NCBI GenBank assembly: GCA_964016885.1
Contig: OZ024750.1
Coordinates: forward strand, 9,548,001-9,612,000
Length of the DNA: 64,000 nucleotides
Origin: Eledone cirrhosa
Taxonomy: Eukaryota
Direction of reading: 5' to 3'
Shown here: positions 3,209-62,610 of the stretch, piece after piece
Numbering within the stretch: the stretch's first letter is position 1
Layout of the letters: every line of letters begins with the position of its first letter
The notes under the pieces: generated by a model
Database searches by the model: none
Told to the model about the DNA's origin: nothing
What the model saw: the letters and a program-made list of their open reading frames with translations, nothing else
Position numbers and translations under genes: made by a program

Positions 3209-3418
3209 AACAAAGAACAAAGAAGGTGTAGTAAGATACCAGATGGACTATAACGCACCAGAGTACTCGATACTTAGGGTAGTAGAGTGGGTAATAGGAA
3301 AAGAGTCAGGACCCCGACGGCTGAGCTCTGGCTGTTTCGACAGCTAGATCCGAACTGTTCGAATCTAGCTGTCGAAAACGGCCGGAGCTCAGCCGTTGGG
3401 GTACCGATTCTTTTCCTA
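3209..3418 (-). mobile_element. H3 fold-back element in (TA)n carrying 3' halves of a hammerhead
   Basis: Hairpin 3295-3418 centred on cagctagatccgaac; TCGAGTACT motif at 3262-3270 (minus); homologous to 13533-13730. Confidence 0.8.
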
Positions 3419-3458
3419 TATATATATATATATATATATATATATATATATATATATA

Positions 3459-3941
3459 AATTTTGAGTATATGTTGGTTGTTTACCAACATCTCAGTATG
3501 CAGATTGGAGCACTCGACGAAGTACGCAGGTTGGTTTGGTTACTCCAGAGTAATGTAAAATAAAATAATTAAGTCAAATATTTAAAATTTGGCTTCGTTT
3601 ATTAAAGGTGTACTGCTATATATATTTCAGTGACAGCCATCTTTGGCTGTGACCTCTTCGGGCAGTCCGAATTGGTGTGGTAGAGACAGGTACACATGTT
3701 GTTGAAGTGTTTAACTCCGTAAATACTCCTCAGAGAAATAACAACCCAACCAGGAACTGGGCATATCAGAGTATTGACGGAGTTAAACACCTCAACAACA
3801 TGTGTACCTGTCTCTACCACACCAATTTGGACTGCCTGACGAGGTCACAGCCAAAGATGGCTGTCACTGAAATATATATAGCAGTACACCTTTAATAAAT
3901 GAAGCCAAATTTTAAATATTTGACTTAATTATTTTATTTTA
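3459..3941. mobile_element. H1 hammerhead fold-back element (Penelope-like pLTR remnant) flanked by (TA)n
   Basis: 173-bp inverted arms 3556-3728/3769-3941 plus ~100-bp terminal extension; homologous to 62465-62975. Confidence 0.85.
3831..3885 (+). ncRNA. Minimal type-I hammerhead ribozyme (H1)
   Basis: actgc CTGACGA ggtcacagcc-aaagat-ggctgtcact GAAA tatata TA gcagt. The mirror copy at 3612-3666 (minus) has a mutated core, CCGAAGA. Confidence 0.85.
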
Positions 3942-5600
3942 TATATATATATAAGCTTTAATAATTCTTTCACTGGTGATGATGACAATGATGATGATGA
4001 TGATAACAACGACTTTGTTGTTGTTGTTGTTACTATTGTTTCTTCAATTAATGTCTTTGCCATTGCTGTCATTGTTCTTACTACTGACTGTTGCTATGGT
4101 TATTATACAATAGAAAAAGAGGACTGTGACAAACTACTAACCTTGACAGATACATACACATACATACATGTACATATAAATATATATATATTCATATATA
4201 TATATATATATATATATATATATATATATATATATATATATATATATATATTTATATATATATATATTAATATTTATATATATATATATTCATATTTATA
4301 TATATATATATTCATATATACAATATAATAAAATATAATAAAATAAAATATATATATTTATTTATATATATATATATATATATTCATATATATATATATT
4401 TATATATATATTCATATATATATATATATTTATATATATATATTCATATATATATGTATATATATGCATGTACATATATATATATATATATATATATATA
4501 TATATATATATATATATATTCATATATATATATATAGAGATAGATATATATATATTCATATATATATATATATGTACACACTGGAATATTGTTGCAACAA
4601 AAACCAAGAACAGAACAATTTAACAGAATAATTTTCAACAAATATTTGAATCCATGAAAGTAATAAAAGCTATTTAACAATGCAAATATTGGAGGAAGAA
4701 ATAAAATCTATACAAAATTTCTGTTTTAAACATGTTCTAATCTTGAGTTTAAAAAAAAACATATTTGAAATCAGAACTAAACTGTCAATAGCCCCAAATT
4801 CATTGAAAATGTTTGATTTTTGGTGGGTATTTTAGAAGGTTTTTGAAGGGGATTTTTTGGGGGGGGGGGGGGGGGGGGGGGGAGTTATTGTCGGTAAAAG
4901 ATGCAATTTAACGTTAGGAGAGAGATTTGTTGAAACATTGAATAAATTTATTCCCCACTCCCACCCCTGCCTCCAACTTTACATTGTTAATTGGCTTATT
5001 TATATTAACTTTGTATTTGGAAACAAATACTGGCAATAAATCATGAACTGATAATATTGTCGGCAATGTAGATTTTGATTTGGAATTGATCAATGGTGAC
5101 CATTGGTAATCATTGATGGTCATTGCTTCTGTTGTTGTTGTTTTTCTTCTTCTTCTTCTTCTTGATGATGAAATTGTAAAATAAGAACTTGTTTGTCATG
5201 ATGGTGATGATAGTGTTGTTGGTGGTGTGATGGTGGTTGTGGTCAGTTGTGTTATTGTGCTGATATTGTAGTGATGATGGTTGAGGTGGTGTGTGTGGGG
5301 GGGGTGGGGGGGGGGGGGGGCTAGTGATGTTGTTGTTGTTGTTGGTAGTGGTTCTGTGATGGCATGGTGGTGGTGTTGTGGTGGTGATGATGGTGATAGT
5401 GGTGGTGGTTGAGGTGGTTGAGGTGATGATGATGGTGGTGATGATGGTGGTGGTATGATGGTGGTGGTATGATGGTAATAGTAGTGGTGATGGTGATGAT
5501 GATGGTATGATGGTATGATGGTGTGGTGATGGTGATGGTGTTACAACTTTTCTCCAATAAGAAATAATTATGTTCTTTCAGTTTTATTATTATTGATTTC

Positions 5601-5793
5601 TAGGTGGATTGGCAGTATCGGTAGAGGGTCGGACGCCATGCTTTGACGCATAGAGTTACGGCCCTTGCCATTCTGAGTTCAAATCCCGCCGAGGTTAACT
5701 TTGCCTTTCATCCTTACGGGGTCGATAAAATAAAGTACCAGTAATACACTGGCTAATTGCTGGCCTTGTGCCAAAAGTAGAAACAATTATTAT
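5601..5793 (+). mobile_element. SINE family A, full length (tRNA-derived head)
   Basis: TGGCAGTATCGG A box, GAGTTCAAATCC B box, core ctttgcctttcatccttacggggtcgataaaataaagtaccag, (ATT)n tail; more than 15 copies in window. Confidence 0.9.
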
Positions 5794-60111: not shown

Positions 60112-60232
60112 TAATTGTTTCTACTTTTGGCACAAGGCCAGCAATTACCCCAGTGTATTACTGGTGCTTTATTTTATCAACCCCTGTAAGGATGAAAGGC
60201 AAAGTTAACCTCGGCAGGATTTGAACTCAGAT
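60112..60232 (-). mobile_element. SINE A, partial (another partial copy at 60836-60920, +)
   Basis: Core and B-box match. Confidence 0.85.
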
Positions 60233-60935
60233 CATCAAGTTTATAATAATTAATGGTATGTAGTTTCTGGACTTTGCACTAGACTGCAAAAGATTATGGG
60301 AATATTGGTAAAACGTTCAATGCCAGATTCTATTTGCTATTTATTTGCAGATTCATTTACTATTTACATTACTCTATATTTACTATTGTATTTTTGTGGT
60401 AAACGCTTTATCTTATATAATTATCTCACATAATATCGAATCTATGAGATTTTTATGTTATCTTTTTTTGAGAAAAATACCATAACGTCAGTATTAACGG
60501 CCAGTTATGGCCGGTTTGAACAGAAAGAGGTGAGAGAATTCTAGCCGGATATGGCTGGTTTAAATGCTAAAGGGTTAATTTTGTGTGTTGTATCACTGTT
60601 AGTTTGGGGCTTATATATTTTTTGATGTCAACTTTTTATCATTTTTTTATGGAATTCTCTGCTGAATAGTAGCATTGGTAACCAATGTTTCCAAGCTCCT
60701 AATTTTTTAATTTGGCGTTAAAGATTTTACTAGTAACCTTCTGATCTTTTGTTACCTACTGTAAAACATATAAACAGGGTTTAACCATGATCAGCTAGGT
60801 TGTTCCTGCAAAGTGAGGCCCTTCCATTGTAGCATGCTGGATTGGCAGTATTGGTAGAGCATTGGACAACATGCTTTGTGGCATAGAATTACGGCCCTTT
60901 ACGTTCTGAGTTCAAATGCTGCTGTAAAACATATA

Positions 60936-61983
60936 AACATAACTTTACATCGAAAGGGGTGGTGTGGATGGGGTGGGGGTAGTGGGGCCGAGGTGTATTT
61001 TTGTTAGAGGTGCCTACTGACGGTAGGTTTCGCTCTGTACTTAGGTAAGGCAGGTCTTCTGTATTACTGTATAGCGCCAAAGATCTCGGTCCAGTGACAT
61101 TGTCTTGGAGAGGTGTAAGTGTGTGAGGTCGGAATTTATCAAGTCGTCCCAGGTTTTTCTGGGTCTGCCTACTCCATGGCTACCGTCTATTTTTATCACC
61201 CTGCACTTTTTTATACAGCTGTCGTCTTTCATGCGCATCACGTGACCATACCAACGTAGCCTTCTCTCGAGTAAACAGCATCTGATCCCTCTTATTCCTA
61301 ATTTTTCCCTTAGTTCGTTTATGCTTTGCCGTTCACGTATATTACTATTACACATCCAGCGGAGCATGCAAGCTTCGTTCCTCTCTAGTCTGCGTATATC
61401 CTCTGCGCACAATGCTCAGGTCTCACTGCCATGCAACATTGCTGTTTGTATGCAGGCATCATACAGCCTGCCTTTCATTTTTAGTGAGAACCCTTTAGCG
61501 GCCAATAGTGGTATAAGCTCTCTGAACTTTTTCCATCCCGTTCTGACTCTAGCTACTGTACTTTCGGAGCACCCTCCACCACTGCTGATTTTGTCACCCA
61601 GGTAATGGAAGGTGTCCACTATTTCTATAGAACCATCTGTGCAATGGAATGAGCTAGTATTCTGTGGGCACTTGCTGCTACTTATTGCACCAGAGCACCG
61701 GCCACATATAAAATCTATATTCTTAGTTAGCTTACCTGTGATCCCACTACATCTTTTATGCACCCATACTTTGCATTTGGGACATAAAATGGAGTTTCTG
61801 CCTACTCCTTTCCTACACACTGAGCATGGCCATTTCCCAGATGGGACTTGTGCCCTATTTTCCTTCCTACAAACTAGAACTTTAGTCTTTGACAGGTTAA
61901 TTTTAAGGCCTTTTGCTTCTAGGCCATGCTTCCATATTTGGAATTTCTTCTCTAGTTCGGCCATTGATTCAGCTATGAGCATT
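60936..61983 (-). pseudogene. RTE LINE subfamily 2, 5'-truncated, with one premature stop
   Basis: Homologous to the C-terminal half of the 34984-37557 ORF including the PHD finger; W-to-TGA at 61416-61418 splits two in-frame ORFs. Confidence 0.93.
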
Positions 61984-62610
61984 ACATATATATACATATA
62001 TATATCCACTCAGCATATACATCCTTTGAAAATAATATATCAACCCAAATCACACAGAGTTGTATAATTATTGTTTTTATATATATCTTTTCATAATTAG
62101 AGTGGTTTATTTATTTATTTGTTTATTTGTTGTTTTAGTTTGATTGTTTTTTTTGTTTATATTATTTGTCTGTCTGTTTGTCACTTCTTGTTTTTTGGTT
62201 TGTTTTTTACTGCTCTATGTTTATTTTTTTTTTAGTTTTGTCATTCGTTATTTTATCTTTTTTACTGTTGTATATATATATACATATATATATATATACA
62301 TACACATATATATATATATATATACACATATATATATATATATATACACATATATATATGTGTATATATATATATATATATACATACACATATATATATA
62401 GAGAGAGAGATATACATATATATATATATATAGAGATATATATATATATATAGAGAGAGAGAGATTTTGAGTTTATGTTGGTTGTATACCAACACCTCAG
62501 TATGCAGGCTGGAGCACTCGACGAAGTGCGCAGGTTGGTTTGGTTACTCCGGAGTAGTGTAAAATAAAGTTAAATAAAAGTCAAATGATTAAAATTTAGC
62601 TTCGTTTATT

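Follow-up and report, generated by a model that had tools for sequence, protein, structure and literature searches.

In a 64,000-nucleotide (nt) stretch of the Eledone cirrhosa genome (GenBank assembly GCA_964016885.1, contig OZ024750.1, positions 9,548,001 to 9,612,000 of the forward strand; hereafter, the window), short repeats carry the word GAGTRCY close to an end that runs into a microsatellite. As judged from their sequences, these repeats are the 5'-truncated ends of distinct families of Hydra-clade Penelope-like retrotransposons. GAGTRCY forms the 3' side of a bulged hairpin, the box RCTC-Y...R-TH-GAGYRCY, and belongs to the first of two boxes placed in tandem in the element leader; both boxes are likely docking sites for the reverse transcriptase (RT) on the element RNA. 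The labels H1–H7 and U3-A8 used below are those of an earlier sequence-only reading of the window, and HyA and the F-numbers are those of the present analysis.

That reading had described the word as a cryptic motif at a fixed distance from the end of otherwise unrelated ribozyme elements. All 17 sites that it listed carried the 7-mer at the given place and strand, and the GAGCACT variant was confirmed in H7. In a regular-expression scan, a dinucleotide run began 40–54 nt past the motif in 15 of the 17 sites, the outliers being 3262–3270 (67 nt, interrupted run) and 40993–41001 (no run scored). Two further copies were found at 22951(+) and 23094(-), at 45 and 29 nt, respectively. Within the window, which is rich in microsatellites, 15 of 32 GAGTRCY matches lay 38–56 nt before a microsatellite vs. 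3.8% of background positions, with palindromic sites counted on both strands and a range picked post hoc. Since the range was derived from the window, the real test was an independent sample of 39 stretches of 10 kb (390 kb) from elsewhere in the same 3.0-Gb genome, where the proportion was 25/105 vs. a background of 2.7% (binomial p ~1e-16). The positional enrichment that the sequence-only reading had anticipated thus extends beyond the window. Copies of GAGTGCT at 19540(+), 34860(+) and 46357(-) belong to an unrelated repeat family, with neither a hairpin arm nor a microsatellite nearby, and are background for the motif count.

Read from its 5' side, the box consists of RCTC-Y, a variable loop, R, a bulge of 1–2 nt and GAGY-RCY; that is, the terminal motif is preceded by the complement of its own first four bases, then by a family-specific inner stem, with the bulge directly before the motif. 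A paired 5' arm was located within 60 nt in 15 of the 17 listed sites, the remaining two (13423 and 33257) being truncated inside the box. When unlisted sites were included, the arm was present at 16 of 19 window sites, and the three armless ones were copies cut inside the box. H7 shows the double change GCTC/GAGC. Further, the arm accompanied GAGYRCY at 16 of 22 sites lying 25–80 nt from a microsatellite in the window, and at 30 of 54 in the sample, vs. 0/24 and 3/118, respectively, away from microsatellites. The CTGATGA inside H5 box 1 belongs to the hairpin and is not a shown hammerhead core. The U-bulge followed by G-A may resemble the arginine site of HIV TAR. Rfam covariance models, run on the window and 11 loci, returned essentially only microsatellite-driven microRNA matches below threshold; as the scan also missed the hammerheads present here, this negative is weak.

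The parent elements were reached through a genome search for GIY-YIG endonucleases (EN). It returned mostly Neptune-type elements, a name that rests on motifs and not on a tree, and two of these loci also held the end of another element. A search with that end led to an autonomous family with the marks by which the Hydra clade was defined (PMC8557442). In its 30 EN loci, 22 sense ends were tail-less and eight had a tail of ~66 nt holding the box; in tandem autonomous copies, this tail forms the beginning of the 5' leader, after which come a second motif and the open reading frame (ORF). Sequence was continuous from the hammerhead core through the ORF in 11 of the 30 loci, and full-length elements have two tandem boxes before the ATG. 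As predicted before searching, longer copies of H1 and H3–H7, of an element termed an orphan in the earlier reading and of the family of site 23094 resume with RCTC a few bases past the end site. Pattern searches for long copies gave 133, 23, 167 and 143 matches for H2, H3, H6 and H7, with none for each reversed-pattern control, and long copies were also found for H1, H4, H5, the orphan and the 23094 family (2703 matches vs. 643 in the control, both counts inflated by satellites). All families except the 23094 family continue into a Hydra-type ORF; no protein was recovered for the latter, and a related family gave a weak match only. No remnant of a Hydra ORF was found within the window itself.

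The proteins are encoded by a single ORF of under 3 kb with RT and C-terminal endonuclease, exemplified by the open 713-aa ORF of the young H2 family (L362), which has YRDD and a C-terminal YIG region; ~700 aa could be aligned for the H2 and H3 proteins. RIRW and DKT were found in H2, R.RW in H1, H3, H4, H5, H7 and the orphan family, and DKT in L168. H6 was assigned to the Hydra clade by profile score. H2 and the L141/L168 family have the CxCX5C linker and CxxC/CxH around a conserved E and N, with no CCHH, and the C-terminal CxxC/CxH motifs are present in H3 as well. Pfam matched no family to the Hydra ORF of L168, and the domains were accordingly assigned from motifs and homologs; the protein tree (66 rows) includes none of the published Hydra reference proteins. 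A search of solved-structure sequences with a 103-sequence profile gave one chance match only (E 0.4). Between families, the best protein segments were 34–56% identical (73% for H1 vs. one close sister), which makes the families old lineages and argues against a single recently shared tail. Hence, the elements called "otherwise unrelated" are all ends of one retrotransposon clade.

A type I hammerhead in the terminal repeat is a mark of Hydra elements. A putative hammerhead core, identified by sequence, was present in 7 of 10 long copies; it appeared intact in those of H1, H2, H4, H6 and H7, and H3 has a U3-A8 variant predicted to fold as a hammerhead. However, no core was found within 300 nt for H5 or the orphan family. 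In H3 (L331 and other long copies), the U3-A8 catalytic pair is combined with a palindromic helix III. Satellites and retrozyme-like mini-units also occur, namely a satellite of ~51-nt H3 box-1 units and tandem mini-units of H2 (~211 nt), H3 (~200 nt) and probably H7 (183-nt spacing), the loci being L333–L335; L293, L323; and G000:C2:169702714-169703505. The window copies themselves are not non-LTR retrozymes: they derive from families with an ORF, as truncated ends that occur singly or inverted, and do not form tandem hammerhead units.

A Neptune-type parent was also rejected, given that the boxes at 50 screened GIY-YIG loci, of which those with long ORFs were read, were separate Hydra-family insertions. 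One Neptune-type hammerhead family (L117, L121, L122, L126, L133, L135, L208 and others) has two 3' ends of its own, separated by ~32 nt; none of its 12 distinct ends has a GAGYRCY box, and the family may use another duplicated signal. Two Neptune-type copies flank a member of a further hammerhead family at L125:6705-7070, in which 75 nt separate box 1 from the end.

The positions of the copy ends were then compared with those of the boxes. Copies ended at TA, approximately 6 nt 5' of either box 1 (site A, tail-less) or box 2 (site B, tailed). Ends were classed against natural long copies of 12 families, in intervals 24 nt wide with most offsets at 4–10 nt. Of 31 3' ends in the window, 10 were at site A, 16 at site B and five had no microsatellite; the corresponding figures for the 84 ends of the sample were 34, 40 and 10, and neither set had an end elsewhere. 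The ends thus ran into a microsatellite in 26/31 and 74/84 cases, indicative of (TA)n targeting. Among loci L138–L181, five of 96 ends fell outside the two classes. In metagenomic loci, TA peaked 6 nt upstream of the box (38/79), and 12 of 16 alignable ends stopped 0–4 nt before a box, the other four looking like family divergence or chance extension.

Across nine families, the distance from motif to end followed the box spacing with a slope of 0.89 (r 0.986). Its standard deviation (SD) was 9.5 nt, compared to 2.0 nt for the distance from the end to box 2 (4–10 nt). Since the latter is nearly constant and the former is not, the proposed "fixed distance" corresponds to the box spacing of each family (medians of 29–60 nt), and the end follows the next box, which is itself not copied. 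The suggestion of a conserved cis signal, such as an RT or endonuclease binding site, is consistent with our results; a linear word that sets the end at a constant distance beyond itself is not supported.

Inverted insertions followed a second rule. One A end was paired with one B end in 8 of 8 cases in the window and in 22 of 23 in the sample (p ~1e-8 vs. independence), the sole exception resembling a nested mis-pairing; the same held for 17 of 17 in L138–L181, some of them duplicates. In ~10 of 30 inverted pairs the B arm was confined to the tail. Tandem and inverted element structures were both present. At L014 (G000:C10:48072680-48072786, - strand), a full U6 small nuclear RNA (snRNA) copy is flanked by an inverted H2 tail, which is the site B arm, on one side and by a site A end of H2 on the other. 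This is consistent with capture by template switching and points to RNA-templated synthesis.

The boxes and inverted insertions of the window are as follows.

3262..3288, - strand: H3 box 1.
3453..3942: inverted insertion of H1; the - strand carries the tailed arm (site B), the + strand the tail-less one (site A).
3509..3551, - strand: H1 box 1, with ACTC arm, inner stem, TC bulge and GAGTGCT.
13425..13431, + strand: 3' half of H1 box 1; the copy (13408-13486) is truncated within the box.
13572..13598, - strand: H3 box 1, CT bulge.
18006..18091: H3 inverted insertion, not in the earlier list; short site B arm and site A arm.
20825..20846, - strand: H2 box 1.
22890..22995: H2 inverted insertion, not in the earlier list; the - strand has the site A arm and the + strand a tail-only arm of site B (motif 22951-22957).
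23088..23132, - strand: box 1 of the further (23094) family, 29-nt spacing, not in the earlier list.
23252..23741: H5 inverted insertion, A and B ends.
23659..23685, + strand: H5 box 1.
25432..25670: H2 inverted insertion, A and B ends; hammerhead cores 25540(+) and 25492(-).
25606..25627, + strand: H2 box 1.
27901..27927, + strand: H3 box 1.
33201..33487: inverted insertion of H6; the arm of site A, on +, has a hammerhead core at 33381, and that of site B, on -, is tail-only (motif 33257-33263, its 5' arm lost by truncation).
33542..33568, - strand: H3 box 1.
33670..34054: H4 inverted insertion, B and A ends; hammerhead cores 33858(-) and 33947(+).
33726..33753, - strand: H4 box 1.
40980..41001, + strand: H2 box 1; hammerhead core at 40907.
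41122..41174, - strand: "orphan" box 1, 7-bp inner stem; end of another Hydra family.
42040..42063, + strand: H7 box 1, ancestral GCTC/GAGCACT form; hammerhead core at 41951.
43378..43400, - strand: box 1 of the "U3-A8" element, 1-nt bulge.
57130..57153, + strand: H6 box 1; hammerhead core at 57024.
62458..62975: inverted insertion of H1 with B and A ends; hammerhead cores 62660(-) and 62875(+).
62513..62555, - strand: H1 box 1.

The tail of the "U3-A8" element (43378..43400) is 77% identical to the autonomous family of loci L168–L170/L189. At 33201–34054, H6, H3 and H4 insertions are stacked in one (TA)n cluster, and similar stacks of Hydra families occupy 3216–3942, 13408–13656, 22890–23741 and 40904–41187.

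The box is conserved clade-wide with covariation. Of 8000 proteins scored in a homolog search, 946 reached E <= 1e-20; an alignment of 52 sequences was then used to retrieve 78 metagenomic Hydra loci. The ancestral form is GCTC/GAGCACT, which occurs in 62 of these 78 loci (115 boxes; 116 sense vs. 5 antisense pattern matches). Likewise, a loose scan for G at the stem base, RCY after it and at least four inner pairs found GCTC/GAGC in 26 of 27 matches near leaders or hammerheads. At a 2-nt bulge, the pair after GCTC was Watson–Crick in 82 of 83 distinct boxes (CG 53, TA 28, GC 1), compared to only 0–19 of 83 at other bulge offsets; the bulge was TT in 55, TC in 16 and TA in 11. Inner stems totalled 195 pairs against a maximum of 144 in 2000 shuffles. 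The loci contained 35 tandem box pairs, 57–75 nt apart.

On the protein tree (FastTree, with F385 and the 23094 family left out, and row L227 mislabelled by the labelling rule), double changes of the closing pair occurred 10–11 times, at least seven of them forced by starred branches. The ACTC/GAGT form is found in two separate lineages of the host genome and H7 retains GCTC, although branches are long and deep joins unsure. By eye, the box was visible in four of six published Hydra consensus sequences in the available material of PMC8557442, namely Hydra-2_Amil, Hydra-1_Ajap (twice), Hydra-2_Ajap and Hydra-1_Crog (variant stems); it was weak in Hydra-1_Amil and none was seen in Hydra-1_Obim.

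To account for these results, we propose that two RT molecules dock on the two RNA boxes, each priming from one nicked target strand, a model that we regard as probable. The element's own protein would read each box, as RNA rather than DNA. The nicked (TA)n 3' end would anneal to a UA patch 5–9 nt upstream of the box and prime synthesis there. A protein dimer, or two molecules on one RNA, may engage both boxes, one per target strand. Priming at site B would copy the tail with box 1, placing the motif 29–60 nt from the microsatellite, and priming at site A would leave the motif uncopied; joining of the two complementary DNAs (cDNAs) head to head would give the A + B inverted product. Such two-box docking would account for the long-known one-sided "tail" of Penelope. 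The proposed protein binding, RNA substrate, microhomology priming and dimer all lean on PMC11167929. That box 2 pairs across a loop of ~65 nt in H7 and ~90 nt in the L189 family argues for folding.

Several observations weigh against this proposal. B arms extend past site A in 20 of 30 pairs by our count, for which strand displacement or a second template would be needed. There was no clustering of 5' truncations at the site of hammerhead cleavage, apart from a few isolated cases. In H2, box 2 consists of an AGCACT half only, ~10 nt past a sharp site B, with no GCTC arm; thus, a full hairpin is not always required. Finally, all key pairs are Watson–Crick, meaning that either strand and either polymer could fold; the excess of G.U over A.C is weak (15 vs. 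7 in one count, 13 vs. 7 in another), and no G.U ever occurs at the closing pair.

The strict Watson–Crick pairing, with no G.U at the closing pair, speaks for the main rival explanation, in which the boxes are read as DNA, either in single-stranded cDNA or as an extruded hairpin, and a longer intermediate is cut back by the GIY-YIG endonuclease to the TA next to each box, with staggered cuts yielding one A and one B end. This explanation has further points in its favor: both end sites are TA, as is the target; PMC8557442 suggests that the tail arises from EN-mediated resolution; and, in earlier work cited in PMC11167929, the endonuclease reportedly required the tail to recognize plasmid DNA. 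However, spacer loops of ~3–90 nt are unfit for double-stranded DNA recognition, and a cDNA primed at A or B would lack the very box that should define its end. The G.U bias, weak as it is, is toward the sense strand, the tail-only B arms and the U6 chimera are compatible with synthesis primed on an RNA template, and internal RT initiation at two tail-bounding sites has been measured in vitro for a relative (PMC11167929). We therefore consider DNA trimming possible but improbable.

Even less likely is that the boxes serve element transcription or translation, as a downstream promoter element or in cap-independent initiation after hammerhead cleavage, with the ends set by TA microhomology. In 31 of 35 leaders, the first ATG is indeed 12–31 nt past box 2, and TATA/Inr-like sequences occur in Penelope repeats (PMC3846280). 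Nevertheless, two sharp end sites in leaders full of other TA dinucleotides, as well as the A + B rule, would be left unexplained, and short tandem derivatives that lack a full ORF retain both boxes and site B in H3, and box 1, site B and half of box 2 in H2. A role as an snRNA-type promoter element was rejected, since none of 25 distinct regions upstream of U1, U2 and U6 genes carried the motif on the sense strand within 130 nt. The boxes may still have a second role, in translation. We give very little credence to a ruler, i.e., a protein on the copied motif that sets the 3' end a fixed 40–55 nt downstream: most window families do lie at 40–54 nt and the H2 end is sharp in spite of its incomplete box 2, but the distance varies with family box spacing while the end-to-box-2 distance does not, and site A lies upstream of the motif with the same offset. 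Lastly, the 7-mer is also found free of any hairpin in the unrelated repeat at 19540, 34860 and 46357, as a chance word would be; however, both chance and one recently shared tail are refuted by the association of the arm with terminal sites, the protein divergence of the families and an identical box in distant relatives.

The kind of element described here is known. The Hydra clade of C-terminal EN+ Penelope-like elements, including Hydra-1_Obim, was reported by Craig et al. (2021; PMC8557442), and the clade, its hammerheads, (TA)n targeting, occurrence in Octopus and the one-sided tail have all been published (PMC8557442; PMC3846280; PMC4209133). The present families share with it the short single ORF, RWR/RWK, DKT, the CxCX5C linker and C-terminal CxxC/CxH, along with (TA)n targeting, tandem and inverted copies and, in several of them, a putative hammerhead in the 3' repeat. 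The available text of that paper gives hammerheads and a generic tail of 30–40 nt, compared to ~50–90 nt here, with no tandem box, two-site end rule or A + B pairing.

The closest experimental parallel is PAc, an element of the Poseidon clade from Anolis (Frangieh et al., 2024; PMC11167929), for which internal RT starts at two tail-bounding sites were obtained in vitro, both target strands were extended, RNA ~55–60 nt 3' of the starts was required and a dimer was predicted. AT-rich cleavage and a dispensable hammerhead are further likenesses. However, PAc belongs to another clade and starts in an "AC-rich stem loop", in contrast with the TA found here; its binding motif is bracketed, in the text at hand, only to the first 172 nt of the ORF, compared to a candidate determinant that is a defined, duplicated and covarying box in the 5' leader.

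In Penelope, a tail on one of the inverted pLTRs was described by Arkhipova et al. (2013; PMC3846280); as here, it lies at one end of inverted insertions and is the start of the next tandem copy, but the portion of that paper available gives no sequence determinant, and the mechanism put forward there is self-priming on an antisense template. Metazoan non-LTR retrozymes (PMC7229834; bioRxiv 10.64898/2026.07.22.740005) are short tandem hammerhead units derived from Penelope repeats, with no box described in the available parts of either paper. They resemble the mini-units of H2, H3 and probably H7, and differ from the window copies, which are monomeric or inverted 5'-truncated ends of autonomous families.

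In stringent LINE/SINE 3' stem-loops and in the template-boundary elements of telomerase RNA, an RNA structure beside the RT start positions the enzyme; the signal proposed here differs in being 3' of the start, uncopied and present twice. We found no description of the tandem box or end rule in the literature, most subscription journals and Repbase reports being outside the scope of the search, and a duplicated cis-acting hairpin that predicts both insertion ends is apparently undescribed.

Other features were recorded in passing. On the - strand, 34984–37596 holds a LINE reading frame of 870 aa from stop to stop, probably RTE-like by its motifs; further fragments of this type lie at 43045–43422 and 61041–62009 (-). 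The U6, U2 and U1 genes (L003–L020, L023–L034 and L040–L048) form tandem arrays with units of ~1.8, 2.2 and 2.7 kb. A TATA-like stretch and a TCAGT word near -55 are common to the regions upstream of U1 and U2, and an octamer-like word lies near -78 upstream of U6 genes.

With regard to the clade as a whole, we lean toward the view that, in Hydra elements of several animal phyla, a duplicated, uncopied RNA hairpin runs two coordinated target-primed reverse transcription (TPRT) reactions from a single leader, one per target strand. The Penelope tail and inverted structure have been known for years with no sequence cause; if this view is true, programmed twin priming explains both, and a telomerase-related RT gains a defined RNA handle. 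The box would then be a candidate element for RNA recognition by the enzymes most closely related to telomerase reverse transcriptase, and a short one, where the only in vitro study could, in its available text, no more than bracket the protein-binding RNA (PMC11167929). As the box predicts both ends within a few bases, the mechanism is testable with point mutants, for which the open ORF of L362 is at hand. For the host genome, many short unclassified repeats can be reassigned to Hydra families, with the box as an annotation signature.

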